Source of the DNA: Candidatus Woesearchaeota archaeon
GTDB taxonomy: Archaea; Nanobdellota; Nanobdellia; Pacearchaeales; GW2011-AR1
DNA length: 64,000 nucleotides
Direction: 5' to 3'
Assembly (NCBI GenBank): GCA_964612895.1
Contig: CAZTFL010000001.1
Location: forward strand, 510,223 to 574,222
The notes beneath the pieces were generated by a model. It searched no databases. It was not told where the DNA came from and was given only the letters and a program-made list of their open reading frames with translations. Both the position numbers and the translations under genes were made by a program. This document shows, in pieces, positions 1 through 58,144 of the stretch. Positions within the stretch are counted from its first letter, which is position 1. Every line of letters starts with the position of its first letter.

Positions 1-184
1 AACGGAAATGTTAACGCAAAGAAGAATTAGTGATATATTAGCAGATTTAGATATGATGGGTATAATAAATGCTAAGGTTATAAGCAAAGGAAGGCATGGA
101 AGAACAAGAGATATAAAGATGGGAATACCTGAAAATATGTTATTCAAAGTTGAAGATATTTTAAAAGAAAGTTTAGGATTATAG
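1..184 (+). CDS. orc1: Orc1/Cdc6 replication initiator, C-terminal winged-helix fragment (5' end outside window)
   Basis: Frame 2 reads ...TEMLTQRRISDILADLDMMGIINAKVISKGRHGRTRDIKMGIPENMLFKVEDILKESLGL, stop TAG 182-184. The GRxGRTR segment and helix pattern match archaeal Cdc6 WH domains. It sits directly upstream of PolD DP1, as in Pyrococcus. Confidence 0.7.
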   Translation, partial: TEMLTQRRISDILADLDMMGIINAKVISKGRHGRTRDIKMGIPENMLFKVEDILKESLGL

Positions 185-229: not shown

Positions 230-1729
230 ATGGTTGAAAATATTATTAATTATTGTATAAAAAAAGGATTTTTTTTAGATAAAGATATGCTTTTTCTTTT
301 TAAAAACATGGAAGAAAACAAAAAAAAACAAATATTAGATATTTTATCAAGTCTAAACCTAAAAGAAAAAGTAATAACTAAAAAGATTTTATTGAAAAAC
401 AGGGACAAAATAGAGCCGGTCTTAAATAAAAAAAATTTAAAATTTCAAGATATAATAGAAATTAATTATACAGATATTATTGAAACAGAAAAAAATGTAT
501 TAGATGATGAAGTAAAAATATTAAATGAACCAATATTTGAACAAAAAATTTTAGAAATTAATGATTTTTTGAATTATTTTAGATTAAAATATAATTTTAT
601 TAAAGATAAGTTTGATTTAAATAAAATAAATGATATTACAAGTATAAGAAAAATTCCAAAAAATGGAAATTTCTCTATGATAGTTTCTGTATTTAATAAA
701 AAAATAACAAAAAATAAAAATATTTTATTAAATGTAGAAGATTTGACAGGGAATGTAAATGTTATAATAAATAAAGAAAATACAAATATTTATAATAAAG
801 CGTCAAAATTATTTTTAGATGATGTTATATTAATTAAATGTAGTATAATAAATGGAGATTTATTTATAGTTAATGATATAATTTTTTCAGAACTTAAATT
901 AGATAAAGAAAAAAAAATAAATGAAGATATTTGGGTTGCTTTTATTGGAGACTTGCATTGTGGTTCTAAATATTTTTTAGAAAGTAATTTTTTAAAATTT
1001 ATAAAATGGATTAATAAGGAAGATTCAAATGAATATGATAATATTGCAAAAAAAATAAAATATTTATTTATCGGTGGAGATTTAATAGATGGCATTGGAG
1101 AATACGGAACTCAAGAGGAAGATTTGTCTATAAAAAAAATAAAATCTCAATATAAAAAAGTGGAAGAATTTCTTAAATTATTTAGAAAAGATTTGAAAAT
1201 ATTTTTATCTCCAGGAAATAGAGATTCTTCATGGAAAGGGGAGCCACAAATAAAAATAAGCACTGAATATTTTGAAGATATAAAGAAAAACGAAAATATT
1301 ATTTTTTTAACAAATCCCTCAAATGTCTTAATAAAAAACACATTTAATATATTGTCATACCATGGAATGAATATTTATAATTTAATAAATCAAAGAGATG
1401 ATATAAAAAATAAATTTGGATATAAATCTCCTAATAATTTAATAAAAGAACTTTTTAACTCATCTCAATTATGCCCTTCTTATGGAAACGTTGATATAAT
1501 TATAGACAGCAACAATTCAATGGTAATTAAAACAATTCCAGATATTATTTTTACCTCTCATTTTCATAGATGTGATGTTGATATGAAAAATAATATATTA
1601 ATGATAAATGGTTCGTGTTGGGTTAAAAATACCAAATATTTTGAAGAAAAGGGAATTGTGCCTAATTATTGTAAAGTTCCCCTATTTAATCTTAAAACGA
1701 GAGAGATTAAAATATTAGATTTTGAGTGA
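230..1729 (+). CDS. dp1: DNA polymerase D (PolD) small subunit DP1, calcineurin-like phosphoesterase fold
   Basis: MPE motifs are present: FIGDLHCGS, FIGGDLIDGIG, SPGNRDS (GNHD-like, with His replaced by Arg), SYHGMN, TSHFHR. An OB-like region precedes them, and size and synteny with cdc6 fit. Confidence 0.85.
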   Translation: MVENIINYCIKKGFFLDKDMLFLFKNMEENKKKQILDILSSLNLKEKVITKKILLKNRDKIEPVLNKKNLKFQDIIEINYTDIIETEKNVLDDEVKILNEPIFEQKILEINDFLNYFRLKYNFIKDKFDLNKINDITSIRKIPKNGNFSMIVSVFNKKITKNKNILLNVEDLTGNVNVIINKENTNIYNKASKLFLDDVILIKCSIINGDLFIVNDIIFSELKLDKEKKINEDIWVAFIGDLHCGSKYFLESNFLKFIKWINKEDSNEYDNIAKKIKYLFIGGDLIDGIGEYGTQEEDLSIKKIKSQYKKVEEFLKLFRKDLKIFLSPGNRDSSWKGEPQIKISTEYFEDIKKNENIIFLTNPSNVLIKNTFNILSYHGMNIYNLINQRDDIKNKFGYKSPNNLIKELFNSSQLCPSYGNVDIIIDSNNSMVIKTIPDIIFTSHFHRCDVDMKNNILMINGSCWVKNTKYFEEKGIVPNYCKVPLFNLKTREIKILDFE

Positions 1730-1768: not shown

Positions 1769-3013
1769 ATGATAAAAATATTACTTTTTTATTTTTCTAT
1801 GTTTTTAGGTATTTTTATAATGATTTTTTATATTATAAGTTATAAAAAAAGAGACATGAATAGGCAAATACAAGATAAGAGTAAGTTACCATTCGTTTCA
1901 ATCATTGTCCCAGCTTGGAATGAAGAAAAAGGAATCGGTCCTACAATAGAATCTCTCCAAAAATTAAACTATCCAAAAGATAAACTCGAAATTCTTGTTG
2001 TAGATGATGGATCAACAGATGATACGTATAATATAGCACAAAAATACGAAAATTCTATAGTAAAAGTTTTTAAGAAAGATCAAAATGGTGGAAAATTTAC
2101 AGCATTAAATTATGGAATAGAAAAATCTAGAGGTGATATTATAATTTCTAGCGATGCGGATAAATTACAGGTTAGTTCTAATTCATTAATAGATATGGTT
2201 CAACCATTTGAGGATGAAAAAGTTATGTGTGTTGCTCCATCAATGGCTATAAATGATTCGAAAAAAATTCTTTGCCGTGTACAACAAATAGAGTATCTAT
2301 TAGGTATTTTTTTAAGAAATGCACTTGCTAGTGTTCATGCTATGAGTGTTACACCGGGAGCCTTTTCTGCCTATAGAAAATCTTTTTTTAATAAATATGG
2401 TGGATTTAAAAAAGCACATATGACTGAAGATATGGAAATGTGTATGAGGATACAATATAATAATTACAAGGTTGCAAGTGTTCCTAATGCTATTGTCTTA
2501 ACGGAAGCTCCAGATAAATTTATTCCCTTATTAAAACAAAGAAGAAGGTGGTACGTAGGGCAATTTAAAAATTTATACGATTATAAAAAAATGTTTTCAA
2601 AATCATATGGGATACTTGGTATTTTTGCATTACCTCTTTCTATAGGATCAGTTTTGTTATCATTGATATTATCTCTTTTTGTGATTTCAACTACATTAAA
2701 AGCCTCAATTAAAAATATTAGAATATTGGAATCAATAAACTTTGATATATTTAACTCTTTTGAATTAAGCAGTTTTTTAATAGAGAGATTAATTTTTAAA
2801 TCAATATCCAATCCTATGTTTATATTTTCTATAATATTTTTTATAATGCTTGTAGGATACCTTATTTTTGCAAAAAAATTTGTAAAACAAATTAATGGAT
2901 TATTTTTAAGTCTATTGGAATTTATGGTAGTATATCCAATTTTATTTTTTGTATGGTGGACAGATGCATTGATTCGTACATTTGTAATAAAAAAACAATT
3001 TAAATGGAGATAG
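1769..3013 (+). CDS. Family 2 glycosyltransferase, processive synthase type (NodC/chitin/cellulose synthase-like)
   Basis: Motifs VPAWNEE, VVDDGSTDDT, SSDAD, TEDMEM and QRRRW, plus N- and C-terminal TM segments. Confidence 0.8.
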   Translation: MIKILLFYFSMFLGIFIMIFYIISYKKRDMNRQIQDKSKLPFVSIIVPAWNEEKGIGPTIESLQKLNYPKDKLEILVVDDGSTDDTYNIAQKYENSIVKVFKKDQNGGKFTALNYGIEKSRGDIIISSDADKLQVSSNSLIDMVQPFEDEKVMCVAPSMAINDSKKILCRVQQIEYLLGIFLRNALASVHAMSVTPGAFSAYRKSFFNKYGGFKKAHMTEDMEMCMRIQYNNYKVASVPNAIVLTEAPDKFIPLLKQRRRWYVGQFKNLYDYKKMFSKSYGILGIFALPLSIGSVLLSLILSLFVISTTLKASIKNIRILESINFDIFNSFELSSFLIERLIFKSISNPMFIFSIIFFIMLVGYLIFAKKFVKQINGLFLSLLEFMVVYPILFFVWWTDALIRTFVIKKQFKWR

Positions 3014-3044
3014 ATTTAAAATATATATAATCTAATTAACTTAA

Positions 3045-3683
3045 ATGGAAGATACTAAGAGAAGATTATATGGCGGAAGATTTCTTATTGCGTTTTTCTT
3101 AACAGTACTTGTATTTTTATCCATCTTTTTTTTTACAAGTGAAATTTTTAAAAATAAGGCTATCTTTGTAAAAGAGGAACAACAACAATTATATTATGAT
3201 TTACTTTTATACCAATTACAGATGGAGTTGGCTCAAGATTGTGAAAGTTTTAGTTTGAATGATTTATCTCAGAAGGTAGATCAATTTGGATTCTATATGG
3301 ACTTAATTGAAAAGGAAATGGGAAAAAATAACGAATTTGTTCTTTCTGAAAAAAATAGATATGTCGCTTTAGAAGTTCAACATATGCTTTTATCTATAAA
3401 ACAAAAAGATATATGTAATAAAACAAATAATACTATTTTGTTATTTTTCTATTCAAATGAAGACTTTTATGTTGATGATTCGGAAAAGGTAGGGCATATG
3501 CTTACAAACATAAAAATAAACAATCCTAATTTATTGGTTTATTCATTTGATATAAATCTTAACTCTTCATTAGTAAACTTCCTTAAAGAAAAATATTATG
3601 TTAGTATCCCAAATACAATTATTGTTAAAAATAAGAAGATTGTTTCCCCAAAGAATGTTGATGAATTGTACGAACTAATATAA
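3045..3683 (+). CDS. Hypothetical membrane-anchored protein (C-terminal part loosely thioredoxin-fold-like, no CxxC)
   Basis: ORF with an N-terminal TM (FLIAFFLTVLVFLSIFFF). The C-terminal IPNTIIVKNKKIVSPKNVDELYELI resembles the end of Trx/Grx folds. No catalytic cysteines are seen. Confidence 0.3.
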   Translation: MEDTKRRLYGGRFLIAFFLTVLVFLSIFFFTSEIFKNKAIFVKEEQQQLYYDLLLYQLQMELAQDCESFSLNDLSQKVDQFGFYMDLIEKEMGKNNEFVLSEKNRYVALEVQHMLLSIKQKDICNKTNNTILLFFYSNEDFYVDDSEKVGHMLTNIKINNPNLLVYSFDINLNSSLVNFLKEKYYVSIPNTIIVKNKKIVSPKNVDELYELI

Positions 3684-3854: not shown

Positions 3855-6800
3855 ATGGATAAGAAAATTTTTGGATATTGGAACGAAGATGACTATTTTG
3901 ATGATTTAAATGAAAGAATAAACAATTCATACAAAATTGCAAATATAGCAAAGCAAAAAGGAGTCGATTGCATTAAAGAGGTAGAAATTCCAATAGCAAA
4001 ATCAGTCGCAGAAAGATGTGTTAACTTGGTAAGAACAATATACCCAGAATTACCACTCAAAGAGATAAGTGATGAAATAGTCAATTTTGAAAATAAATTT
4101 GGAAAACAGAATGGAAGTGTAGCTTTTTTTATATCAAAAGAGATTGCGGAGTGTAAATTCTTTAATTTTACAAAAAAAGAGGATGCTATTGATGCCGGTC
4201 TTCGTGTAGGATTTTCTTATTTAACACTTGGTGTTGTTGCAAGTCCTTTGGAGGGATATACAGGATTAACTATAGTAAAAGAAGGAGATAGTAATTTTTT
4301 TAATGTTAAGTTTTCTGGACCTATAAGAAGTGCCGGAACAACAACTACGTGTGTTTTTTTGATGTTAGTTGATTACTTAAGAGAGTCTTTTGGATACGAT
4401 AAATATGTTGCAAGTGAGGAAGAGATAAATAGATATTATATTGAATGTTTGGATTATAATAATAATGTTTCTAATCTTCAATATTTACCAACAGAAGAAG
4501 AGCTTAAATTTTTAGTTAAAAATATACCTATACAAATAGATGGGGACCCGACAGGTGATTTAGAAGTTAGTAATTATAAAGATTTGAAAAGAGTGTTTAC
4601 AAATAAAGTTAGAGGTGGTGTTTGTTTGGTTTTAGCAGAAGCTTTAGCTCAAAAAGCATCAAAAGCTATTCATAGACTTAGGGGTATTAAAAATAATGGA
4701 ATAATTTGTTCTGGATTTGACTATTTAAATGAATATTCTCTGATACATTCAAAAAATATTGTTGGCGAGAAAGGAGAAGCTGTTTATATAAAAGATTTAG
4801 TGGCTGGTCGTCCTGTTTATGGTTATCCATCGAGAAGTGGTAGTTTTAGATTTAGATATGGAAAAAGTAGAGATAGTGGATTTAGTGCTGTTGGAATTAG
4901 TCCTGCAACTATGGGTGTTAGTGATGGGTTTTTATCGTTTGGAACTCAATTAAAACTAGAAAAACCAATAAAAGGAGCCATTGTGACGTCTTGTGATTCT
5001 ATTGATGGACCTATTGTAAAATTAAAAAATGGCAGTGTAAAAAAAATTGAAAGTTACGATGAAGGAAGGAAAATTAGTAAAGATATTTTAGAAATAATAT
5101 ATTTGGGCGATATTTTAGTTTCTTTAGGAGATGTTGTAGATAGAAATTCCGTTTTACTAAAATCTGCTTATGTAGAAGAATGGTGGAATTTAGAATTAAA
5201 AAATAAAATGGAAATTATGGGAGATTTTTTAGATTATGATAAGTATAATATATCTTTTAATGATGCTTTAAAATTAAGCAAAAAATACTCTGTTCCATTA
5301 TATCCGAAGTATATATATTATTGGAAAGAAATAAGCGTTAAACAATTTATAGAATTATTAAATTGGATTAAATCAGGTAGTTGGACGGATGATTCGAAAA
5401 AATTTATTTTACCATTTGGTATGATTTCAAAAGACAAATATAATGTTGCAAAAAGAACTTTAGAATTAATAGGTGTTATTCATGATGTAATTTTAGACAA
5501 TGTTGTTTTAGAAGAAGAAATTGCAAAATCAATTTTTGTTAATATAGGAATATTTAATAATTTTGAAAAAATTGAGGATATTATAAAATTTTCAAAAGAC
5601 AAAGAAGATGTTTTGTTAATTTTAAATAATTTTTCAGAATTTTTAATAAATGACAAATCTGGGGAATTTATTGGGGCAAGAATGGGTCGTCCGGAAAAAG
5701 CGAAATTAAGAAAACAGTCAGGAGGATTTAATTTATTGTCCAATTTATCCTTAAAAGATTTAGATGAAAATGAAAAAAACAAACTAAAGTCATTTTTATT
5801 GAATTTAAATCAGGATGAAAAAGTTTTAAATTTTGTAAAAAATAAAAAAATAGATAATGAATTATTTAATGAAGATTTTAGAAAAGGTATTTTACGAGCT
5901 ATCTACAATTTAAATGTAAATAAAGATGGAACCATACGATATGATGCAACAGAAATACCGCTTACTCATTTTAAACCAATGGAAATTGGAGTTGGTATTG
6001 AAAAATTAAAAGATTTAGGGTATGATATAGATATTTTTGGAAATGAACTATTAACAGACAAACAAATTTTGGAATTAAAACCACATGATATAATTTTCCC
6101 TAAAAATTCTTATTCTGTTTTTTTGAAAATTTGTAATTTTTTAGATGAAGAATTGTCTAGGATATATGGTGTTGATAAATTTTTTAAATTAAAAGATGAA
6201 AATGATTTCATTGGTCAATTAATCGTTTGCATAGCTCCTCATAATTGTGCTGGTGTTGTGGGCAGAGTATTGGGATTTTCCCAAATGGAAGGAATTTTGG
6301 CTAGTCCATATATGCATGCAGCAATTCGTAGAGATTGTGATGGAGACGAAATGTCTGTAATTATGTTAATGGATGCTTTGTTAAATTTTAGTAAAAAATA
6401 CTTACCTTCACATAGAGGTGGTAGTCAAGATGCCCCATTGATATTAAATAGTAGAATTTATGAGGGAGAAGTTGACGATCAAATATTAGAATATGATATT
6501 TCTTATGAATACGGATTAGATTTATATAAAAAATCTCAAATTAAAGAACATTCTAGTAAGGTTTTGAATGATAACGTGAAATCTAGATTAAAAGAGGGGT
6601 TTTCTGGGTTTTCGAATATAGGTTTTACACATAATACGTTTGATATAAATGTTGGTGAAAAAAATAGTTCTTATAAAAATCTTGTTACAATGCGTGAAAA
6701 AGTAGAAATGCAAATGCAATTGGTTGATAAGATAAGAGCTGTTGATAAGGACGATGTTGCTAAAATGATAATAGAAAAACATTTTCTTAAAGATATTTTA

Positions 6801-7110
6801 AAGAACCTTTCTAATTTTTTTAAACAAGGGTTTAGATGTTCTAGTTGTGGATTAAAACATAGAAGAATTCCACTTAGTGGTGTTTGTATGAAATGTGGAG
6901 GAAATTTACTAATGACAGTTTCCTATGCTTCAATAAAAAAATATTTGAATTCTGCAATATTATTATCGCAAAAATATAAAATTCCAGAATATACTTTAGA
7001 AAATTTAAATTTAACGAAAAAATATATAGAAGATATTTTTGGCGTTGATAAGCAATTGGAATTATTTAAAGATGAAAAATTAAATACAGAAGAAAACAAT
7101 TTTTTGGAAA
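3855..7110 (+). other. DP2 (PolD catalytic subunit) module of the fusion ORF
   Basis: Collinear with Pyrococcus DP2 as recalled, from the N-terminus to the Zn-III finger (6837-6896) and the following DP1-binding helices. The catalytic RRDCDGDE lies at 6327-6350. Confidence 0.85.
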
Positions 7111-10100
7111 ATATTTCTGACTTCAAAAAAGATTTTTCTATAGAAAAACAAAGTAAAATCAATGATGAAGATTTTAAAAAAATAAATAAAAAAGAAATAG
7201 AAAATATTGATTTTGTTCATTTACACTTACATTCAGAATATAGTTTTTTAGATGGAGCAATAAAAATTAATGATTTATTTAAGAGAGTTAAGGAATTAGG
7301 AATGAGTTCTGTTGCCATAACAGAGCATGGTAATATGGAATCTTTAATAAATAAATATCAATTAGCTAAAAAAGAAGGAATAAAATTGATTTTTGGGATG
7401 GAAGCGTATATTGTTAATGATATGTTAATTAATGATAAAAATGAAAAAAGATATCATTTAATTTTAATTGCGAAAAATAATGAAGGACTAAAAAATTTAA
7501 TGAAATTAAGTTCTCTTGCTTATTGTAAAGGATTTTATTACAAACCAAGAATAGATAAAAATATTTTGAAACAATATAGTGAAGGAATAATTTGTATGAG
7601 CGCTTGTTTAGCTAATGATATTGCATCGAATATAGTTGATGATAATATCGATGAAGCGAAAAAAAAATTGGATGAATATTTAGATATTTTTGGGAAAGAT
7701 AATTTTTATCTAGAAGTGCAAAATCATAACATAGAAGAGGAAAGAAAAGTAAGAAATATATATTATAAATGGGCTGATGAATTTGGATTAAATATTGTTG
7801 CGACATGTGATTCACATTACTTGTTAAAAGAAGATGCTAGGGCTCATGAAGCTATGTTATGTATTCAAACAAATGGATTTTTAGATGATAATAATCATTT
7901 TCATTTTAGTGGAGATGGATATTACGTTATGAGTAAGGAAGAAATGATAGAAAGATTCTCTGATAGGTTGGACGCTATAAGTAATACAAGAAAAATAGCG
8001 GATATGTGTAATGTTGATTTAATTTTAGGAGATACTACCTTTCCTAATTATGACACACCAGATAATTCAGACCATGACGAATATTTAAAAAAATTATGTC
8101 AAAATGGATTAGAAAAAGTTTATGGGAATAAAAATAATTATAATGAAGCAAAAGAACGTATGGAATACGAACTTTCTGTAATTAAAAAGATGGGTTTTTC
8201 TACTTATTTTTTAATAGTTCAGGATTTTATAAAAGCTGCAAAAAATAAATGTCAAGTTGGACCTGGTAGGGGAAGTGGAGCTGGTAGTATAGTTGCTTAT
8301 CTTCTAGGGATAACTCAACTAGAACCATTACATCTAGGATTATTATTTGAAAGATTTCTTAATCCAGACAGAATTAGTTTACCAGATTTTGATATTGATT
8401 TTGGTGATAGAGATGTTGTTGTAAATTATGTAAAAGAAAAATATGGAGAAGATAAAGTTGCTTTAATAGGAACTTATGGAACAATGAGTGCAAAATCTGT
8501 TCTAAAAGATGTCATGAGAGTTTTTAAAATTCCTTTTAATATAGCAAATCAAATTACGAATTTTGTCAGTGAAAAAACTATAAAAGAAAGTTTAGAATTA
8601 AAAGATAGTTCTGGTAAATTTTCGAATAAAGAATTAAATGATTTTAAGAAAAAATATTCAGAAATTTTTGATATAGCAATGAAATTAGAAGGTTGTGTTA
8701 GGCATAAGGGAGTTCATGCTTGTGGTGTTGTTTGGGGCAAAAAACCAATAACAGAATATTTACCAATTATGGAAAAAGATGGATTTATTGTTGCTCAAGC
8801 TGAAGGTCATGAAATAGAAGATTTAGGTTTAGTTAAATTTGATTTTTTAGGATTAGAAACATTAAATATAACAAAAAAAGTTTTGAATTTTATAAATAAA
8901 GAAGATGAGTGGTTAGAAAATATTGATTTGACGGATAAATCTGTTTATGAAATGTTAAAACAAGGAGATAGTGTTGGGGTTTTTCAGTTGGAAAGTTCTG
9001 GAATGCAAAAAACATTAAAATCTGTTGGGCCTACTTGTTTTGACGATATTATAGCTATTGTCGCATTGTATAGACCCGGACCTATGCAATATTTAGATGT
9101 TTATGGGAATAGAAAATATGGAAAAGAAAAAGTCATTTATCCACATCCTTTAGCCGAAGAAATTCTTGCTCCAACTTATGGAATAATGGTATATCAGGAA
9201 CAGGTTATGCATTTGGCTCAAAAATTAGCTGGTTTTAGTATGTCTGAAGCCGATACTCTTAGAAAAGCTATTGGAAAGAAAAAAATGGATTTAATGAAGA
9301 GTATGGAAGAAAAATTTAAGAATGGTTGTTTAAATGTTGCGAAAATGAATCAGAAAGATATAGATAAATTGTGGGATGATATTGTAAAATTTGCATCTTA
9401 TTCATTTAATAAAAGTCATGCTGCGGCGTATGCATTAATAGCATATAGAACCGCTTATTTAAAAAAATATTATCCGACTGAATTTATGGCTTCTACAATT
9501 TCTTCAAGTATTCATGATCCGGAAAAAATGAGTTTTTATTTAGAAGAGACTAGAAAAATGGGTATAAATATTTTAGGACCTGATATAAATACATCTTTGA
9601 GAAGCTTTAATGTAGAATTAATAGGTAAGAAAAAAATTATACGTTTTGGACTTAGTGGTATAAAAAATGTAGGAGAAGGTGCAATAGATTCTATATTAAA
9701 AAATAGAGATTATATTTCTTTTAAGGATTTTTTATCGAAAGTCGATTTAACAAAAGTAAACAAGAGAGTTGTCAAAAATCTAATATGTGTTGGATGTTTT
9801 GATAATTTTGGAATTAGTAGAGGAGAGCTTTTATCTATTTATGAAGGAACCGGGAATTCAAATTCTATTAAACAAACAACCTTGTTTTCAAATAAAAAAG
9901 AAGAAAGTATTCATGTAATTAAAATGGAGTTAAAAGATATGATTAATTTTGAAAAAGAATTAATGGGAGTTTGTATTTCTTGCAATCCAATGGATTTGTT
10001 TGTTGAATCAAAATCAGAAATATTAAACAATTATAATTTAAAAGATTCTGAGAGGTTATCTTTATTTGGAATTGTCAAAAAATTTAGAAAAACAAAAACT

Positions 10101-10310
10101 AAAAACGGAGATAATATGGCTTTTTTGACTATATTTAGCAAAGATAAATATTGTGATTGTGTCATATTTCCTAAAATTTATGATGAATTTTATACTATAA
10201 TGGATATAAAAGAATTTGATGGTATTGTTGTTAGTGGTATTTATAGAGAAAATAAAGAAAATGGTGGTAGTCTAATCGTTGAAGAAATAAATAAAGCAAG
10301 ATTTATCTAA
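3855..10310 (+). CDS. Fusion protein: PolD large subunit DP2 (aa 1 to about 1085) joined in frame to a DnaE-type DNA polymerase III alpha subunit (aa about 1118-2151)
   Basis: DP2 marks: FSGPIRSAGTT, VRGGVCLVLAEALAQKA, GSFRFRYGKSRDSGFSAVGISPATM, GTQLKLEKPIKGA, GARMGRPEKA, KDGTIRYDATE, APHNCAGVVGRV, RRDCDGDE, CSSCGx15CMKCGG. DnaE marks: HLHLHSEYSFLDGA, ITEHGNM, CDSHY, GPGRGSGAGSIVAYLLGIT, LPDFDIDF, FQLES, RPGPM, YQEQVM, FNKSHAAAYA, and a C-terminal OB region. The ORF is single and uninterrupted. Confidence 0.9.
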   Translation: MDKKIFGYWNEDDYFDDLNERINNSYKIANIAKQKGVDCIKEVEIPIAKSVAERCVNLVRTIYPELPLKEISDEIVNFENKFGKQNGSVAFFISKEIAECKFFNFTKKEDAIDAGLRVGFSYLTLGVVASPLEGYTGLTIVKEGDSNFFNVKFSGPIRSAGTTTTCVFLMLVDYLRESFGYDKYVASEEEINRYYIECLDYNNNVSNLQYLPTEEELKFLVKNIPIQIDGDPTGDLEVSNYKDLKRVFTNKVRGGVCLVLAEALAQKASKAIHRLRGIKNNGIICSGFDYLNEYSLIHSKNIVGEKGEAVYIKDLVAGRPVYGYPSRSGSFRFRYGKSRDSGFSAVGISPATMGVSDGFLSFGTQLKLEKPIKGAIVTSCDSIDGPIVKLKNGSVKKIESYDEGRKISKDILEIIYLGDILVSLGDVVDRNSVLLKSAYVEEWWNLELKNKMEIMGDFLDYDKYNISFNDALKLSKKYSVPLYPKYIYYWKEISVKQFIELLNWIKSGSWTDDSKKFILPFGMISKDKYNVAKRTLELIGVIHDVILDNVVLEEEIAKSIFVNIGIFNNFEKIEDIIKFSKDKEDVLLILNNFSEFLINDKSGEFIGARMGRPEKAKLRKQSGGFNLLSNLSLKDLDENEKNKLKSFLLNLNQDEKVLNFVKNKKIDNELFNEDFRKGILRAIYNLNVNKDGTIRYDATEIPLTHFKPMEIGVGIEKLKDLGYDIDIFGNELLTDKQILELKPHDIIFPKNSYSVFLKICNFLDEELSRIYGVDKFFKLKDENDFIGQLIVCIAPHNCAGVVGRVLGFSQMEGILASPYMHAAIRRDCDGDEMSVIMLMDALLNFSKKYLPSHRGGSQDAPLILNSRIYEGEVDDQILEYDISYEYGLDLYKKSQIKEHSSKVLNDNVKSRLKEGFSGFSNIGFTHNTFDINVGEKNSSYKNLVTMREKVEMQMQLVDKIRAVDKDDVAKMIIEKHFLKDILKNLSNFFKQGFRCSSCGLKHRRIPLSGVCMKCGGNLLMTVSYASIKKYLNSAILLSQKYKIPEYTLENLNLTKKYIEDIFGVDKQLELFKDEKLNTEENNFLENISDFKKDFSIEKQSKINDEDFKKINKKEIENIDFVHLHLHSEYSFLDGAIKINDLFKRVKELGMSSVAITEHGNMESLINKYQLAKKEGIKLIFGMEAYIVNDMLINDKNEKRYHLILIAKNNEGLKNLMKLSSLAYCKGFYYKPRIDKNILKQYSEGIICMSACLANDIASNIVDDNIDEAKKKLDEYLDIFGKDNFYLEVQNHNIEEERKVRNIYYKWADEFGLNIVATCDSHYLLKEDARAHEAMLCIQTNGFLDDNNHFHFSGDGYYVMSKEEMIERFSDRLDAISNTRKIADMCNVDLILGDTTFPNYDTPDNSDHDEYLKKLCQNGLEKVYGNKNNYNEAKERMEYELSVIKKMGFSTYFLIVQDFIKAAKNKCQVGPGRGSGAGSIVAYLLGITQLEPLHLGLLFERFLNPDRISLPDFDIDFGDRDVVVNYVKEKYGEDKVALIGTYGTMSAKSVLKDVMRVFKIPFNIANQITNFVSEKTIKESLELKDSSGKFSNKELNDFKKKYSEIFDIAMKLEGCVRHKGVHACGVVWGKKPITEYLPIMEKDGFIVAQAEGHEIEDLGLVKFDFLGLETLNITKKVLNFINKEDEWLENIDLTDKSVYEMLKQGDSVGVFQLESSGMQKTLKSVGPTCFDDIIAIVALYRPGPMQYLDVYGNRKYGKEKVIYPHPLAEEILAPTYGIMVYQEQVMHLAQKLAGFSMSEADTLRKAIGKKKMDLMKSMEEKFKNGCLNVAKMNQKDIDKLWDDIVKFASYSFNKSHAAAYALIAYRTAYLKKYYPTEFMASTISSSIHDPEKMSFYLEETRKMGINILGPDINTSLRSFNVELIGKKKIIRFGLSGIKNVGEGAIDSILKNRDYISFKDFLSKVDLTKVNKRVVKNLICVGCFDNFGISRGELLSIYEGTGNSNSIKQTTLFSNKKEESIHVIKMELKDMINFEKELMGVCISCNPMDLFVESKSEILNNYNLKDSERLSLFGIVKKFRKTKTKNGDNMAFLTIFSKDKYCDCVIFPKIYDEFYTIMDIKEFDGIVVSGIYRENKENGGSLIVEEINKARFI
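7209..10310 (+). other. dnaE: DnaE (family C polymerase alpha) module of the fusion ORF: PHP, palm/thumb/fingers, HhH, OB
   Basis: PHP HxH starts at 7209. The catalytic PDFDIDF is at 8382-8402, a QTTLF clamp-binding-like motif at 9873-9887, and the OB fold near the C-terminus. Confidence 0.85.
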
Positions 10311-11390: not shown

Positions 11391-11744
11391 ATGAAAAATA
11401 AAAGAGCACAAATTTTACAACAAACATTAATTCATATAATTATTATAGGATTGGTTGCCTCTATATTTATGTTTTCTATTTTTCAAAGAATAGATAGTCG
11501 GGGTGTTAGACAACAATTAATTGAAAAACAAGTAGCCTTATTGATTGATTCTTCAATTTCGGGAGTTGTTATATATATTGATAAAATTAATCCTGCAGGA
11601 TATATTAGTAGTGTTAAAATAAATGGAAATAAGATATTTATAGTTGTTGATGATTTGGTGTCAATTAATGGGTATTCGTTTTTTTCTTTATATGAGGTTA
11701 GTATTAAAGAGGAGGATGATTTTTTTAAAATAACTATAAAATGA
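11391..11744 (+). CDS. Type IV pilin-like protein (class III signal peptide)
   Basis: MKNKRAQILQQTLIHIIIIGLVASIFMF: basic K-R-A/G motif followed by a hydrophobic helix. The gene is in an overlapping operon with a prepilin peptidase. Confidence 0.55.
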   Translation: MKNKRAQILQQTLIHIIIIGLVASIFMFSIFQRIDSRGVRQQLIEKQVALLIDSSISGVVIYIDKINPAGYISSVKINGNKIFIVVDDLVSINGYSFFSLYEVSIKEEDDFFKITIK

Positions 11745-12232
11745 AAAACAAGAATGGCGCGGGTGCAATAAGCGATATGGTTTTTATGGGTTATAGAATA
11801 GTTATGATAATTATAATCGGTTTTTTAGTTATAGGAATATCTGTATTTGCTTATAATAATGATGTAAATGTTAAACAGGTAGAGTCGATTATTTTAGCAA
11901 AGAATCTTTACAATTGTTTTGTTTCAGAAAATTATATTTTAATGAAAGAAAGCATTAGAGATTATAAGAATAGTATTTTGGAATATTGTGGTTATGATAA
12001 AGGACAAATAAGTAGATTTTATGTAAAAGTTGATATTTTAACTAATAACGTTATCGTTGAAAGTTTTTCTCAAGGGGATTCTGGGAAAATGTGGATATAC
12101 GAGACTATGAAAGAAGAAAAAGATGTTTCAGATAAAAATTCTTTACCTGGATATACTATTATGAGTTTTCCTATTTATTATGAAGGACAAAATTCAAAAA
12201 TAAATATTTCCACTCTGGTAAATGATGAATAA
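11741..12232 (+). CDS. Type IV pilin-like protein
   Basis: MKNKNGAGAISDMVFMGYRIVMIIIIGFLVIGISVF; ATGA overlap with the upstream gene. Confidence 0.5.
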   Translation: MKNKNGAGAISDMVFMGYRIVMIIIIGFLVIGISVFAYNNDVNVKQVESIILAKNLYNCFVSENYILMKESIRDYKNSILEYCGYDKGQISRFYVKVDILTNNVIVESFSQGDSGKMWIYETMKEEKDVSDKNSLPGYTIMSFPIYYEGQNSKINISTLVNDE

Positions 12233-12821
12233 AAAAGGACAAATTGGTGACTTGATGTCAAATTATGTGATGACTATAGTTATAATTGTTATATTAATAG
12301 TGTTTGGTCTTTCGAATACTTTATTAAAAGTTTCTAGTAGTAATGACAATAAATTATCTACTCTTGAATTTGAAATAGAAACTTATGAATCTCTATTTAG
12401 TAAATACATAAATTATGTCTTCAAGAATAAAGACAAAGAAATTGATTGTGATATCAATGAATTAATAATTAATAGAATAGACTCCAGAGAGTATAAAGGA
12501 AATCTTATAGATTTTAAAGAGGAGAATAATATGATATTTGTTAAGGATGTTCTTTTTGAATGGGAAGAATTATCTTGTCCAGCGGGGGATAGAGATTTTA
12601 ATTATTATAAATTAAGTAATAAAATATTTTATTCTTGTTGTCCAGATAATAATGATATTAATTCTTGCAATGTAACATTTTGTACAAGTAGTAATTATAA
12701 AAATATGTTTGATGAAATGTGTGGCAGTTTTAATGATATAACAAATAAACACAACAAACCATTGGAGTATTTTGTAAATCAATATAAGGAGCTTTTTTTA
12801 AATGAAAAATATAATTGTTAG
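12222..12821 (+). CDS. Type IV pilin-like protein, Cys-rich C-terminal domain
   Basis: MMNKKGQIGDLMSNYVMTIVIIVILIVF (KKG-Q motif); overlaps both neighbours. Confidence 0.55.
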   Translation: MMNKKGQIGDLMSNYVMTIVIIVILIVFGLSNTLLKVSSSNDNKLSTLEFEIETYESLFSKYINYVFKNKDKEIDCDINELIINRIDSREYKGNLIDFKEENNMIFVKDVLFEWEELSCPAGDRDFNYYKLSNKIFYSCCPDNNDINSCNVTFCTSSNYKNMFDEMCGSFNDITNKHNKPLEYFVNQYKELFLNEKYNC

Positions 12822-13332
12822 AAAAAATAAAAGAGGGGATATTATAAGTTTATGGTTAGTTATGTTGACCTTAGTTATGTGCGTAACATCTATAATGGTT
12901 TATGTGAATGTTCAAAATAAAATAAATATATCTTTGGCTACTCCAGAAAAAGTATTAAAATTAGAAGAAGAAAAGCAAATTTTTGAAGCAAATGAAAGGA
13001 TTGTGTTCTCTAAAACATATAAGGAAATAAGTATTTCAGATTTAGAAAAATTAAAAAATAAATTTTGTTCCGAAATGTTTAATTATTCAAAATTTATAAC
13101 GCACGATTATTTCGATGGACAAAAGAAGTTTGAAGATTCTTTTTGGAATTCGTTAGAGTGGTTGAATTTATGTAAAAGCATTTATACTATAGAGGATATT
13201 AATAATAAAATAAAGGTAAGTAGAAAGGAGGTAAAAAAACAATTTAAAGTTTCTTCGGATGTAATAACTAGTATTTCATTTTCAAATAAGATAAAATATT
13301 CGTTTTCACATTCTTTTGAAATAGATAAATAG
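12802..13332 (+). CDS. Type IV pilin-like protein
   Basis: RKNKRGDIISLWLVMLTLVMCVTSIMVYV (KRG-D motif followed by a TM). Confidence 0.5.
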   Translation: MKNIIVRKNKRGDIISLWLVMLTLVMCVTSIMVYVNVQNKINISLATPEKVLKLEEEKQIFEANERIVFSKTYKEISISDLEKLKNKFCSEMFNYSKFITHDYFDGQKKFEDSFWNSLEWLNLCKSIYTIEDINNKIKVSRKEVKKQFKVSSDVITSISFSNKIKYSFSHSFEIDK

Positions 13333-13340
13333 TTTAATTT

Positions 13341-13487
13341 ATGATGGATTACGGTGGATGTGATAAGAGAACTACAAAGAAAGATTTAAAGAGGAAAAGA
13401 ACATTTAGAGTTTATAAGAGAGGAGGAACATTTAGAGGACAAAATATTTCTTCTAATGGGAATTCAAATGAGGATAAAAAGAAATAA
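13341..13487 (+). CDS. Possible small basic protein
   Basis: Hand translation: MMDYGGCDKRTTKKDLKRKRTFRVYKRGGTFRGQNISSNGNSNEDKKK. Its stop overlaps the start of the peptidase gene (TAATG). No homology recognised. Confidence 0.25.
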   Translation: MMDYGGCDKRTTKKDLKRKRTFRVYKRGGTFRGQNISSNGNSNEDKKK

Positions 13488-14317
13488 TGGCGATTAATTT
13501 TTTATTTATTTTTTTTGCAGTTGGAATTCTAATTGCTTGTATTCAGGACATTAAGAGACGGGAAATTGATAGATGGCTTACTTATATTTTATTGATAGGT
13601 GGTTTTTTGTACTTAATTGTTGGCGTTATTATTAACAGAGATTATATTATGTTTTTTCAAATGAGCTTTAGTATTTTAATTATGTTTTTATTATCTAATT
13701 TATTATATTATTCTAAGTTTTTTGCCGGCGGAGATTCTAATTTGTTGTTTTCTATGAGTGCTTTTTTCGTTGGAAGGAGCGTTCTAATTAGCTCATTGAA
13801 TATACTATCTTTTATTGTTATTTTATTTATTTCGGGAGGTCTTTATGGATTATTCTATTCATTATTTTTATATTTTAAAAATTTCGAAGAGGTAAATAAG
13901 AGTATAAAATATAATTTTAAAAAGACGAAATTAAAATATTTTTTATTAGTAAGTTTACCATTCTTTATTTTTTCGTTTTTACATATATTTTTATTGCCAT
14001 TAGCTGTGATGCTATTTCTATTCCCAATTTTATTTGTTCTTACAAAGGCGTTAGAAGAAAAATGTTTAACAAAAACAATAAGTACTAGTAATTTACGTTC
14101 TGGAGATTGGATAAATGAAGATATTAAAATTAAAAATAAAATAATAAAATCTTCTTTCTATGGCGTAAATGAAGAGGATATTAAATTATTAAAACTCAAT
14201 GAAAATATTACAATAAAAGAGGGAATCCCGTTTGCGCCTGTTTTTTTAATATCTTTACTTGTTGGACTATTTTTATTTGAGAAAATTTTTACTTTTATAT
14301 ATCAGTTTTTTCTTTAA
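13487..14317 (+). CDS. A24 family prepilin/preflagellin peptidase (PibD/FlaK/EppA-like)
   Basis: Polytopic membrane protein with the two catalytic Asp contexts IQDIKRREIDRWL and FFAGGDSNLLF, and a C-terminal GIPFAPVFL motif. Confidence 0.8.
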   Translation: MAINFLFIFFAVGILIACIQDIKRREIDRWLTYILLIGGFLYLIVGVIINRDYIMFFQMSFSILIMFLLSNLLYYSKFFAGGDSNLLFSMSAFFVGRSVLISSLNILSFIVILFISGGLYGLFYSLFLYFKNFEEVNKSIKYNFKKTKLKYFLLVSLPFFIFSFLHIFLLPLAVMLFLFPILFVLTKALEEKCLTKTISTSNLRSGDWINEDIKIKNKIIKSSFYGVNEEDIKLLKLNENITIKEGIPFAPVFLISLLVGLFLFEKIFTFIYQFFL

Positions 14318-19008: not shown

Positions 19009-22000
19009 ATGGTAAAAAAGGATAGTAATTTTAATTTTTTTGTAAGTATATTTTTAATATTTATCTTGATGTTAAGTTTTTTTTCTCCTTTTGTTGTTGC
19101 TGGACTATCAGATTCTTTTCAAAATCCAACTAATTCGTATCAATATTCTGAACCGACACAAAAAAGTTCTTTACAAAATAATATTAGTTCATCTAATAAT
19201 TTAGTTGAAGAATGTAATAGTAATATAGATGCTGATTTTAAAATTATAGTTACAGAATGTTCTCCATCTGTTGTAACTAGTAATTTATTAGCAGAACAAG
19301 ATGTCCCTGTTTATTGTCAATTAGAAGCAATAAGATTAAATTCTTTAATTCAGGCATCTTCTATTTCTTCAATTACTTTTGATGGTGAATATCCAAAAGG
19401 TGTAAAAAGTATTAGTTATCATCCAGCAAGGGCTTCTATTAATTCTGGAAAATCTATTTTATTAGATGATGTTTTTGAAAATATTGGATATGTTGTTGTC
19501 GTTTTAAATAAACAACCTAATGAAGATAATTTGACTAAATATATTTCAAGTATGCTTACTGCTAAGATGAGATATACATTCTCAAATGGATATGATATAT
19601 CCGAATCTGTTTTATATTTAGATTTAGATAATAAAGATGGCGTTAAAGAATCTTTATTTAGTGGAGCTGGAAATATTTATGTAAAAGATTATGGTAGTGA
19701 TACGGTTAGTTTTAATGTAGATCTCTTGACCTTTGAAAATTTTGAAAATTTTCAACTTTCAAAAGGAGAAACAAGTCCTGTTTATTATCTTCCAGGTTAT
19801 GATTGTAAGGCTGGATTTAGTGTTAGTTTTAACGATATTGTTATGTCTAAAGATAGAGTTCTTTTGAGCGTTGATGATAAATCTTATTGGTTAAGAGAAG
19901 GAGATAGTTTTTTGAATGGAAAGTGTGTAGTAAAAGATATTTCTAAAACAGCAGACTCTGAAAATCGAGGAATTTTTGGAAGTGTTAATGTATTATGTTC
20001 AAATACTAATTTTAATTTAGAGTTAAAAAAATTGGGAAAGACAGAGTCAAAAGAAGAACCAATAGATAGTAATATAGATAGTCAATTTTCGAGTTTGAGA
20101 AATAATATAATTGATAATTTGAATTATTTGACAGGTAATTATCCTTATGAAAAAATAGAGAAAGATTTGAAGTCAGAAGGATTCGAATATTATGCAGAGA
20201 AGGCTTTGTATGAGGGAATTATTTTGTCTGGAGAATTAGGGCAATATGCAACACAGAAAGATTTAGTAAAAATTTTTTTAGAAAAATATAAAGATTCTAA
20301 TTATTTTAATAAAGTTAACCAAATGCTTGAAAAAGCAGAAGTTATTGATTATAGTAGTTCATCAAAAATTGTAGAATGGATTAGTGGTGAAAAGAATTTA
20401 ATTTCATTAAAAGAATTTAAATTTTTAAAAAATGAAATATCGGTGGACGTTTCTGTAGATAAAAAAGCATATACAACATTAAAAGAAGGAGATTCTGTTA
20501 AAGAAGAGTTTCCCGTAAAAATATTAGAAATATATTCAGATAATGTTGTATTTTTATTTGGAAATGAAAGGGTAATTATGAAAAAAGGAGAGAGTCATTA
20601 TTTTAAAGATTCTAGTAATTTAGACCATTATCTTAATTTAGATAAAATAAATTATCTTAGTACGGCTAAAATTACTATAAATCCAAAAATTGGTAATGGA
20701 TATACTTCTGCAAATTTTAGTTTCAATATTCCTATTGAGAAAAGAACATTTTCATTAACACCTGAACAAGCTGCGAAAAAAGCAAAATCTATGGATGATT
20801 TTTTAAGAATTACTCAAGGAATTCTTGATGCAATAGAAGTAGCTGTTCGTGGATGGAATTTAGCTTGTAAAACAGTAAGAACTTATATGACAATAAAAAT
20901 GATTAGCGAGTCTTTTGGTGTTAAGGGAATTGCAAGAAGATCTGTTACTGGATTTGTAAAACAATTTTGTAGAGACAATGTTAGCTCTCAAGGAACAGGT
21001 TCTTATGAAAGCATAGATGAATGTCTTTTGGGAGAGAGTGATAGAATAGAGCAGGCAGTAAAAAATTATAAAGAAGCAATAGATGCTGCTCAAGAAGAAT
21101 TTAATAAGAAAAAAGCAGAGATGAAGAAAACAAATAGAGAAATAAAAGATGATAAAATTATTGATAAAATAAGAATAGGTGAAGTAAAAAATAAGATTGA
21201 TGGGAAAGAAGTATCCAGAACTATATCAGATTCTCAATTAGAAAAGTTATCTGTTTATAATAAATTAATAGAAAATGATAAATCATGCGAAGGTTTTGCC
21301 TGTAAAGCTGTTTTGAAAGAAATAAAAAGTGATGAAAGTTATTTTGCTACAGCTACAAATAATGTTGTTCAAGAGCCAGAAAAAGGAAGTACGGAATCAA
21401 GTCAGACGACGACAGAGAAGTGTTCCAATGCCATTACTCAAAATAAAGAGGTTCGTTATTATGAAGATGGTGTAAATAAGGGACTTGCTGCTATTGTTCC
21501 GTTTAATACAACGGGTGGTTGGTATGCTTATGTTTCTTCTTCTTATGGAGCAATTTTCCAGGAACAAGCTAAATCATATAATTCTAATGGACAACCAAAT
21601 AATTTTTATATATGTAATGTAGGTAATGATGGAGCGGTGGATGAAATAAGTGAAGATGTTTGTCAGTCTTTTAGTATAAATCAAAATAGTTTTGATAATT
21701 TTATTGGTTGTTCAGGTTTATCTAGTACTGATGTTAAAAATCTTTATAATAGTGCTTTGACGGCAATTAGTAGTGCGAATAAACAGTACGGTTCTGATAG
21801 TATAAATATTTTAGGACAAGTATTAAGTGTTGGTGAGAATATGCTTAATGTTTTAAATTTTGAGTGTATTGATTTTTTGAGTCCAAAAGATTGTAAGATT
21901 ATACAGGGAGTTTGTGATTGGGTAGAGTGTCCTTCAAGTAGGTGTAATGCAGGTGGAAAAATAAATGTTCCAGATGTTACACAGACGGGTGTTTTCGGAA

Positions 22001-50650: not shown

Positions 50651-50710
50651 TGATTATTAAAATTTATAAAGTTAAATTTATACAAATAAATAAGGTGATT
50701 TATGGATAAG
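50606..50710 (+). repeat. 105-nt block (3' end of gene, spacer, RBS, start of next gene), copy 1
   Basis: Nearly identical to 56111-56215; the 51-nt spacer differs at one base. Confidence 0.9.
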
Positions 50711-58047: not shown

Positions 58048-58144
58048 TTTTGATAAATTCTAAGAAATAGTTTGTATTTTGAACTTAGTGATATTTTAAC
58101 AATATGATATAAATACTTATAAATGATTTTTGTTTAAAAGAAAT

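Follow-up and report, generated by a model that had tools for sequence, protein, structure and literature searches.

We report that a single gene of an archaeon encodes, as one polypeptide, the catalytic subunit DP2 of the archaeal family D polymerase (PolD) and a DnaE1-like polymerase of family C. The gene is located in a stretch of 64,000 nucleotides from Candidatus Woesearchaeota archaeon (assembly GCA_964612895.1, contig CAZTFL010000001.1, positions 510,223 to 574,222), hereafter called the window, where it forms one open reading frame (ORF) at 3855-10310 on the forward strand, running from ATG to stop with 2151 amino acids plus the stop codon. The frame of 2151 codons had been pointed out in a preliminary description of the window, together with the motifs RRDCDGDE at 6327-6350 and PDFDIDF at 8382-8402; the frame and both sets of coordinates are right, and the proposal of one DP2 plus DnaE polypeptide, with both active sites apparently intact, is supported at the sequence level. 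If true, this would be, to our knowledge, the first known polypeptide with two unrelated, apparently active replicative polymerase cores. We consider it probable that the protein is a tethered two-polymerase replicase, in which DnaE would give proofreading and clamp binding and PolD would anchor the whole to the archaeal replication machinery. The replicative polymerases of the three domains of life belong to families B, C and D, which are not homologous, and it is a long-standing puzzle how one replicase can be replaced by another in an essential machine and whether DNA replication evolved twice; proposals include a replacement of PolD by PolC in bacteria and of the PolD core by PolB in eukaryotes.

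The G+C content of the window is approximately 25%, and a random codon of its base composition is a stop codon with a probability of 0.0955; 2151 stop-free codons would occur by chance with a log10 P of -93.8. Residues 1-1071 of the protein correspond to PolD DP2, residues 1072-1117 to a linker of 46 amino acids, and residues 1118-2151 to the DnaE1-like polymerase. Searches with hidden Markov model profiles, which the preliminary description had proposed as a check, recognised both halves: Pfam assigned PolC_DP2_N (residues 13-280), DP2_central (306-622) and DP2_cat (664-949) to the former, and PHP (1122-1291), DNA_pol3_alpha (1409-1666), a finger domain (1670-1826) and HHH_6 (1903-1991) to the latter, with E-values of all domains ranging from 1e-23 to 1e-98. 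Among the NCBIfam models, PRK05673 for DnaE scored 1144 against a cut-off of 1002 and TIGR00354 for DP2 scored 958 against 702, and a further DP2 model, PRK04023, scored 1079, which is under its full-length cut-off of 1269.

The same fusion was found in other assemblies. A search of approximately 5.8 billion proteins gave eight further full-length fusions (P0001-P0008) with lengths of 2153-2367 amino acids, and a scan of GTDB species representatives gave a tenth one, again from a 'Candidatus Woesearchaeota archaeon' (L004, 2994-9536). That scan used peptide patterns specific to the window, and apart from L004, its sole archaeal relative, it detected bacterial DnaE with 31-45% identity. The fusions have been obtained from JGI, NCBI, ENA and Logan assemblies, on contigs of up to 382 kb, and show 56-75% identity to the window protein in a MAFFT alignment. 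Since the same fusion is present in at least ten independent assemblies, with the junction in frame in 10 out of 10, the fusion is confirmed to be genuine and not an assembly error. The search for fused or split versions in relatives, which had also been suggested, thus gave nine more fusions as well as unfused pairs of adjacent genes.

The unfused pairs show how near to each other the two genes can be. The order cdc6-DP1-DP2-dnaE is found in L002 and L003, with a spacer of 1 nt ('TAA T ATG', L002:9990-10005), and in L143 (13450-13470) the DP2 stop codon and the dnaE start codon overlap as TAATG; judging from these junctions, DP2 and dnaE of L143 and L002 would be translationally coupled. The distance is 77 nt in L131 and 0.4-1.3 kb in L075, L100, L104, L127, L133 and the contig of P0189, where unrelated small ORFs lie between the genes. 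We looked in the 1.1-1.3 kb gaps of L075, L104 and L133 for a conserved accessory gene or a beta clamp, and this idea was rejected, as the ORFs there are mutually unrelated; nor are they related to the 212-amino-acid ORF that precedes the fusion in the window.

Because unfused DP2 and dnaE nearly abut, with a 1-nt spacer or an overlap in the closest relatives, a single indel error could mimic a fusion, and we have therefore examined whether an assembly chimera, a frameshift error or a mis-called ORF has made two adjoining genes read as one. This explanation is effectively refuted by the ten independent in-frame junctions, whose linkers vary in length and sequence, by the absence of Met from the last 25 linker residues ahead of the DnaE start in 9 of the 10 fusions, and by the DnaE N-terminus, which is altered from 'MGF/MAF' in standalone proteins to 'D/N/G/E-F' in fusions. 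Composition is also uniform over the join: the G+C profile is even across it, the G+C content at third codon positions is 0.150 and 0.142 in the DP2 and DnaE halves, respectively, and the halves are alike in codon usage (r = 0.98), which also matches that of other genes in the window. A chimeric join or a recent horizontal transfer is ruled out by the G+C profile, the codon correlation and the ten independent fusions.

That the fusion gene is genuine and has been selectively maintained within one clade of Pacearchaeota/Woesearchaeota-type DPANN archaea is part of what we would offer as the best explanation. Among the fused proteins, conservation is higher in the DnaE half than in the DP2 half, with mean pairwise identities of 0.71 and 0.63 and with 47% and 36% invariant columns, respectively. 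As judged from the alignments, purifying selection is evident at the polymerase centres of both halves and, within DnaE, at the PHP site and the clamp motif.

The DnaE half begins with a PHP domain at 7206-7829 (PF02811, E = 1e-55). A PHP start with an HxH motif had been placed at 7209 in the preliminary description; the start is present, and the first His codon is really at 7218, three codons later. Nine metal ligands (H1122, H1124, D1133, H1158, E1183, H1201, C1251, D1319 and H1321) match those of Thermus aquaticus and Mycobacterium tuberculosis DnaE, and the PHP site would thus be of the proofreading-competent form, as in T. aquaticus DnaE and M. tuberculosis DnaE1. The polymerase core of palm, thumb and fingers follows at 8079-9332 (PF07733, E = 9e-86; PF17657, E = 7e-57), in which D1511 and D1513 of PDFDIDF together with D1663 (8841-8843) correspond to D401, D403 and D555 of Escherichia coli. 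No substitution was found at the catalytic Asp or the nine PHP ligands in 130 archaeal DnaE, gaps being present in a few N-terminally truncated entries. Downstream are a tandem helix-hairpin-helix, (HhH)2, duplex-binding domain at 9561-9827 (PF14579, E = 1e-23) and a predicted internal clamp-binding motif, Q2007-T-T-L-F2011, at 9873-9887, which occupies the position of the bacterial beta-clamp-binding motif. Q2007, T2009, L2010 and F2011 are invariant in fusions; among 120 unfused archaeal DnaE, most have KQ[ML]TLFG at this place, and the aligned bacterial DnaE have GQxDLFS.

The rest of the protein (9888-10310, including the stop codon) is an OB-fold/C-terminal region, assigned by the alignment to the PRK05673 model and by PF01336 recorded on orthologues. 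The 'complete' DnaE that had been described does end after the OB-fold, and it is not complete in that the tau-binding C-terminal domain of E. coli alpha is missing: the alignment covers positions 4-1060 of the 1146 in PRK05673 and reaches residue 1057 of the 1160 in E. coli alpha, and the closest bacterial DnaE are mostly longer than the DnaE half of the window by about 100-150 amino acids.

The DP2 half aligns to Thermococcales DP2 with E = 4e-206 (Pyrococcus abyssi). Its N-terminal and central domains (residues 13-280 and 306-622) are located at 3891-5720 (PF03833, E = 1e-71; PF24844, E = 4e-85; alignment with P. abyssi), and its catalytic domain, the second double-psi beta-barrel (DPBB-2), at 5844-6701 (PF24846, E = 8e-98). 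D827, D829 and D831 of the catalytic loop RRDCDGDE correspond in the alignment to the Mg-binding triad N954/D956/D958 of P. abyssi DP2 (PMC10721889), and are invariant in all fusions; the change from Asn to Asp is common to every Pacearchaeota-type DP2 without an intein in the catalytic loop. An apparent loss of a third catalytic Asp (Met833 for P. abyssi D960) was considered and dropped, the triad being N954/D956/D958. Neither the loop nor its flanks vary among the fusions or among the unfused relatives that have no intein in the loop. In both halves, the catalytic residues can be placed on solved structures. Farther downstream, at 6837-6896, conservation marks the Zn-III finger (C995/C998/C1011/C1014) and the KxRRxP motif (K1001-P1006), for which a role in docking of DP1, the small subunit, has been described, together with the definition of the clamp-2 element and its stabilisation by Zn-I (PMC6355029). 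This region aligns to residues 1118-1198 of Thermococcus kodakarensis DP2, and it is invariant in the nine aligned fusions and, according to a regular-expression search, in L004.

Collinearity with DP2 up to about residue 1085 had been claimed in the preliminary description. The homology holds and ends at about residue 1071, and the half is not fully collinear: the clamp-2 segment at 5721-5870 (residues 623-672; alignment columns 668-750) is reduced, and the Cys cluster of Zn-I and Zn-II has been deleted. The segment from MGRPEK to NKDGT, between DPBB-1 and DPBB-2, has 73 amino acids and no Cys in the window, versus 134-169 amino acids and 5-9 Cys in 62 out of 62 unfused DP2, and about 146 amino acids with 7-9 Cys in relatives. 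The reduced segment agrees in position with clamp-2 (PMC6355029). The deletion is restricted to four fused proteins, i.e., those of the window, P0001, P0002 and L004.

Several other modifications were observed in DP2 of this group. An N-terminal 5'-deoxynucleotidase of the NT5C type (PF06941, about 190 amino acids) is present on P0009, P0015, P0020, P0021, P0025, P0026 and P0092, three NT5C-DP2 proteins being encoded on the same contig as a DnaE, and an HD phosphohydrolase (PF01966, about 330 amino acids) is found at the N-terminus of P0089, from Pacearchaeota; the contig of P0006 has a separate NT5C gene about 9 kb downstream of the fusion. Inteins (PF14528/PF14890) split many Pacearchaeota DP2 (many of P0010-P0120) and are found also in at least two archaeal DnaE (P0204 and P0213); they are present in none of the ten fusions.

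At the junction, the preliminary description had supposed that DnaE replaces the C-terminal tail of DP2, which in Pyrococcus bears the binding box for the sliding clamp PCNA. Replacement of a long tail of this kind does not hold, since unfused relatives stop directly after the DP1-binding helices, with tails of the form IFGKxxEKQxxLxxWF before the stop codon, and the fusion keeps the Q1067-x-x-L1070 core of this PCNA-interacting peptide (PIP) and has lost the aromatic pair only. The remnant Q1067-L-E-L1070-F1071 (7053-7067) matches in position the internal PIP (iPIP) of Thermococcus, directly after the ordered C-terminal domain. In T. kodakarensis, the aromatic residues of the C-terminal PIP (cPIP) are critical for primase binding, and PCNA is held by the iPIP Q-x-x-L-M, which follows the ordered C-terminal domain (PMC8096248). 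Q1067 and L1070 are invariant in fusions, F is often the next residue, and the WF pair is gone. The charged linker at 7068-7205 (residues 1072-1117) had been described as Cys-free and of 30-60 amino acids, in agreement with the 46 residues and no Cys found here; in the alignment of fusions it is not conserved, with a mean pairwise identity of 0.21 and no invariant column, and the spacers counted from the QxxL core have 34-156 amino acids, 31-59% of them charged, and differ in sequence.

Loss of the aromatic pair is associated with DnaE also in unfused DP2. For comparisons of PolD we used approximately 85 related polD loci, collected by a metagenome scan and contig look-ups. Among the unfused DP2 in the database, 94 of 112 end in Qxx[LIMV]xx[WFY][FWYLIV]; the aromatic pair is absent in 7 of 8 DP2 adjacent to a DnaE, versus about 0-1 of 32 loci without a DnaE nearby, dnaE being absent from at least the 5 kb that follow DP2 (Fisher p = 3e-6, indicative only). 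The tails lacking the aromatic residues read SQATL, RQREL, QVTLGV and similar before the stop codon. Seven of 18 DP2 without the full PIP have a DnaE cluster on a contig of equal size, and no equal-sized DnaE contig was seen, by eye, for the DP2 with a full PIP that were compared. In addition, two of the 32 DP2 without a nearby dnaE end in QxTLF (KQTTLF in L137 and NQNTLF in L083). These tails look like the pentapeptide type of KQ[MT]TLFG in DnaE, and hint that QxTLF may be a usable PCNA-binding variant in these archaea.

Changes were found in the small subunit as well. DP1 of the window (230-1729, forward strand, 499 amino acids) was recognised by the Pfam families Metallophos and DNA_pol_E_B and by P. 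abyssi DP1 (E = 2e-51). Its motifs I, II, IV and V and the metal ligands are present, and in motif III, GNRD (nt 1214-1225), His is replaced by Arg. The corresponding H451 of P. abyssi DP1 is the proton donor and is essential for exonuclease activity (PMC4996933). This His has been lost in five of six fused genomes (GNRD, GNRD, GDRD, GSND and GTRD), as compared with 1 of 75 loci outside them (p = 1.4e-6, to be read as above), and it is kept in all of the roughly 65 aligned loci to which no DnaE is linked; L127 is the only unfused DnaE-adjacent locus with motif III aligned that lacks it. The variety of the substitutions argues for repeated relaxation of selection. Metal ligands are mostly kept in DP1 of fused genomes and are lost from motifs IV and V in an unfused dnaE-adjacent lineage (L075, L127 and L133). 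In L132 and L102, where no dnaE is visible, His of motif I is changed to Gln (SDIQVGS and GDIQAGS), and change of the DP1 active site is therefore not exclusive to lineages linked with DnaE. Taken as sequence changes, the decay of the PolD proofreading residue, the PIP aromatic pair and Zn-I/Zn-II is shown where DnaE has become attached.

One way to read this decay is that PolD has been retired, i.e., that DP2 has ceased to polymerise and now forms, together with a DP1 devoid of exonuclease activity, only a scaffold that recruits DnaE as the sole replicase. The loss of the DP1 proton donor, of the aromatic pair critical for primase binding in T. kodakarensis, and of Zn-I/Zn-II from clamp-2 in the four proteins speaks for it, as does the stronger conservation of the DnaE half, and eukaryotic polymerases offer parallels in their inactivated B-subunits and, for Pol epsilon, in a polymerase module that is inactive. 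However, RRDCDGDE and its flanks are kept invariant, as described above, the DP2 catalytic domain has a mean identity of 0.68 with 42% invariant columns, which equals the level of the PHP domain, and most of the DP1 metal ligands have been retained; we thus regard full retirement of PolD as unlikely.

The opposite assignment, in which PolD is the main replicase and DnaE an accessory enzyme held at the fork by the fusion, either as a primer-extension helper like DnaE3 of Bacillus subtilis or for repair and translesion synthesis like DnaE2, seems to us improbable. Nearly all non-crenarchaeal archaea have PolD, which is essential in them (PMC6355029), the best-scoring named bacterial relative of the DnaE belongs to Bacillota (Thermoflavimicrobium, 42% identity), a phylum having replisomes with PolC plus DnaE (PMC3919608), and the C-terminal domain is missing, as in DnaE2 and some DnaE3, all of which would suit an accessory role. 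The tau-binding C-terminal domain is present in 91% of DnaE1, and an intact PHP with a strong clamp motif is the signature of DnaE1, as opposed to the 'impaired' DnaE3 or DnaE2: DnaE3 and most DnaE2 have no conserved PHP metal site, and their clamp motifs are weak (PMC3919608). Against an accessory role, therefore, the window has nine PHP ligands and a near-consensus QxTLF, and its score with the NCBIfam model for error-prone DnaE2 is 557, under the cut-off of 939, while PRK05673 is passed. T. aquaticus DnaE matched with 745 bits, and PolC with only 161 bits. Erosion of the DP1 exonuclease would also be hard to explain if PolD alone were replicating accurately.

Standalone homologues of the DnaE half, with about 1040 amino acids, form more than 120 clusters within this DPANN group and show 55-64% identity to it; the nearest named unfused DP2 and DnaE are from Pacearchaeota or Nanoarchaeota. 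In neighbour-joining (NJ) trees, the fused DnaE halves were monophyletic in 100 of 100 bootstraps, and archaeal DnaE were separated from 20 bacterial DnaE also in 100 of 100. In an exhaustive HMMER search over 1.84 billion cluster representatives, the archaeal clade made up 2-4 clusters, with scores of 1722, 1416, 1047 and 973 bits, and the next-best match, with 832 bits and 42% identity, was Thermoflavimicrobium daqui (Bacillota), the sole named one among the top matches. Viral DnaE showed at best 29-38% identity to the window DnaE. From the trees, the drop in HMMER score and the low viral identity, the acquisition of DnaE is concluded to be old and the gene to be fully domesticated. A phylogeny to find the donor of the DnaE half had been suggested in the preliminary description; it gave a single, separate archaeal lineage, and no donor lineage was identified.

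These data bear also on the idea that the gene is cargo of a virus or mobile element next to polD and not the chromosomal replicase. Phage-like genes are found near some DPANN polymerase III (Pol III) genes (Castelle et al., PMC8204110), and L001 and the P0006 contig have a tyrosine integrase some 8 kb upstream of the fusion. Nevertheless, we consider cargo highly improbable: in addition to the distance from viral DnaE, codon usage is that of the host, the DP2 half of the fusion is the sole DP2 seen at these loci, and the fusion always comes after cdc6-DP1 and always lies between DP1 and housekeeping genes (aS21, EF-1beta, TctA, GTPase and diphthamide synthase). The claim that this is a chromosomal replication locus and not mobile cargo is in line with the origin-proximal position of cdc6 and polD. 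The cdc6-DP1 island itself had been described correctly as to the locus, with two differences: only the last 60 codons of cdc6/orc1, encoding the C-terminal winged-helix domain, are within the window (2-181, frame 2, forward strand), cut by the window start, and two other genes intervene between DP1 and the fusion. Full-length Cdc6 is found at this position in L001, L002, L073, L074 and L235-L237.

On this basis, the tethered two-polymerase replicase can be pictured as follows. The ancestor would have had an origin-proximal string cdc6-DP1-DP2-dnaE, in which PolD was already beside a horizontally acquired, long-resident DnaE1-like polymerase that presumably had an intact PHP site and a clamp motif and no tau-binding domain. 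Loss of the DP2 stop codon in this clade would then have tethered DnaE to the DP2 C-terminal domain through a disordered charged linker of 34-156 amino acids. The DP1/DP2 module may hold the complex in the archaeal replisome, by DP1-DP2 assembly via Zn-III and, as suggested by Thermococcus biochemistry, by contacts of DP1N with GINS; contacts of DP1N with Gins51 have been described in Thermococcus (PMC9023282). PolD possibly retains a specialised synthesis step, the PHP domain of the tethered DnaE would take over 3'-5' proofreading, and DnaE would make synthesis processive by binding a clamp and probably carry out a large share of the bulk synthesis. Its clamp is presumably PCNA, given the genes for replication factor C (RFC) in the window and the QxTLF ending of two related DP2. 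The covalent linker would stand in place of the bacterial tau tether, and primer termini could be handed over between the polymerases in cis.

Several points weigh against this picture. The 'intact' active sites are intact in the sense of conserved residues. The NJ tree of DP2 recovers the fused clade in 1 of 100 bootstraps only, splitting the fused sequences into groups a (100/100) and b (59/100), and unfused L082 and L084, which have an intact PIP and no nearby dnaE, join group b in 80 of 100; this conflict points to a history with a loss or fission, with two fusions or with recombination at the locus, unless the NJ method is in error. One fused genome, L236 (the locus of P0007), keeps the DP1 His (GQHD). 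The compared loci are phylogenetically non-independent, and the Fisher p-values overstate the support. Neither clamp gene was found in 1.36 Mb of sequence (the window plus 86 archaeal loci), a tblastn search with P. furiosus PCNA and E. coli DnaN giving nothing at E <= 1 in the sequence around polD that was covered; the partner of QxTLF could be PCNA or a beta clamp. Likewise, DnaN, DnaX/HolA/HolB and DnaQ were not seen in the 64-kb window or about 85 archaeal loci. Finally, the catalytic loop, Zn-III and 36% of the columns of DP2 are strictly conserved, and therefore PolD is not simply decaying and the division of labour is not fixed by this conservation.

A stronger form of the tethered-replicase reading, which we put forward only tentatively and hold to be rather doubtful, is that the fusion is the only chromosomal replicase and a living intermediate of replicase displacement, in which a bacterial-type DnaE1 would have assumed the processive and proofread synthesis on an archaeal chassis of PCNA, RFC and the CMG helicase, PolD would be reduced to a non-proofreading adaptor or primer-extension module, and DP1 would be becoming an inactive B-subunit. 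If displacement were true, it would be the same kind of transition as has been proposed for the bacterial stem (PolD to PolC) and the eukaryotic stem (DP2 core to PolB). The clade offers a natural hybrid, in which replicases of families D and C are encoded together near the origin, as translationally coupled neighbours to begin with and later as one chain, and a measurable decay of the proofreading, clamp- and primase-binding and DNA-clamp elements of PolD goes with the association with DnaE. Replacement scenarios would become testable with one recombinant protein and a few point mutants, and the question is raised of how a bacterial polymerase is wired to PCNA, RFC and CMG.

As for the surrounding genes, the lineage-specific insertion between DP1 and the fusion (1769-3683, forward strand), which does not belong to the replicase, consists of a GT2 glycosyltransferase (1769-3013, by Pfam) and a transmembrane ORF of 212 amino acids (3045-3683). 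GT2 and an ORF of about 215 amino acids lie between DP1 and DP2 also in L004 (1022-2904) and in unfused L082 (8022-9917), and the copies of the latter ORF have no detectable sequence similarity to one another. The insertion is missing from L001, L235, L236 and L237, where the order is cdc6-DP1-fusion, as it is in the P0006 contig; its distribution conflicts with the DP2 and DnaE trees. The small and large RFC subunits are encoded at 58130-59173 and 59177-60373 on the forward strand (Pfam Rep_fac_C, AAA and RFC1-like lid), and the large subunit, ending in LTQEEIDYINEVNQ, has merely a loose PIP-like QxxIxY. The window also encodes TFB, ribosomal proteins and a split Hef; TFB, the ribosomal proteins and RFC identify the host as an archaeon whose clamp loader is of the archaeal type. 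The Hef-like protein is divided into a DEAD/ResIII helicase (42445-43986) and an ERCC4 nuclease (44039-44677), the same pair being found in L074. A set resembling type IV pili or archaella is located at 11391-14317 and 30189-32456, with four small ORFs without Pfam match followed by a prepilin peptidase (A24) and, further on, an ATPase of the T2SSE family; the prepilin peptidase block is syntenic in L001, L004 and L082. Very large ORFs are found at 19009-24630 (1873 amino acids, no Pfam match), 47546-50650 (1034 amino acids) and 50702-56155 (1817 amino acids), of which the latter two have a Laminin_G_3/concanavalin-like domain and are probably surface proteins.

Among known systems, the nearest is that of Castelle et al. 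(2021, Front Microbiol, PMC8204110), who reported Pol III genes in some DPANN that are highly divergent from bacterial ones and, in two Pacearchaeota, lie beside PolD genes. The background given in the preliminary description, that archaea replicate with PolB and/or PolD and that family C belongs to bacteria, stands beside this earlier report, and archaea without family C polymerases is therefore too general. The lineage, the neighbourhood (a Pol III gene beside the genes for the small and large PolD subunits) and the divergent DnaE are the same as here. In contrast to their separate genes in two genomes, one polypeptide is found here in at least ten assemblies, and the loss of the cPIP, the loss of the DP1 His and the deletion of Zn-I/Zn-II are not described in their paper, whose text does not contain the words 'fused' or 'fusion'; a full-text literature search gave no description of a DP2-DnaE fusion. 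The co-occurrence of PolD and DnaE in Pacearchaeota was thus already known, from one paragraph of the literature; what appears to be new is that the two are fused, that the fusion recurs, and that DP1 and DP2 have been remodelled in correlation with it.

Two polymerases of replicative grade at one fork are also a feature of bacterial replisomes with PolC plus DnaE3 (B. subtilis) or PolC plus DnaE1 (Clostridia) (PMC3919608), and the window DnaE, with the DnaE1 hallmarks, scores best against DnaE of the Bacillota/Clostridia type. Here, unlike in those replisomes, the partner is the unrelated family D, the join is covalent, a tau-binding domain is missing, and the machinery is archaeal (Cdc6, RFC and TFB).

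Eukaryotic replicative polymerases combine a PolB core with a DP2-like Zn-finger C-terminal domain and an inactivated B-subunit derived from DP1, to which Pol epsilon adds another polymerase module that is inactive (PMC6355029; PMC2669801). Like these chimeras, the fusion places a foreign core on the platform of DP1 and the DP2 C-terminal domain, with loss of a catalytic residue of DP1 in five of the six fused genomes; unlike them, the core is of family C and is placed C-terminal to that domain, the DP2 core is conserved, and DP1 keeps most metal ligands. Compared with PolD of Thermococcales (P. abyssi and T. kodakarensis; PDB 6HMS, 6T8H and 6KNB), all three domains (N-terminal, central and catalytic) can be aligned, as can the catalytic loop, the helices that bind DP1 and Zn-III, whereas the window protein differs in having Asp for N954 and in lacking Zn-I/Zn-II, a long disordered tail and the aromatic pair of the cPIP, its DP1 has no equivalent of H451, and 1034 residues of DnaE have been appended.

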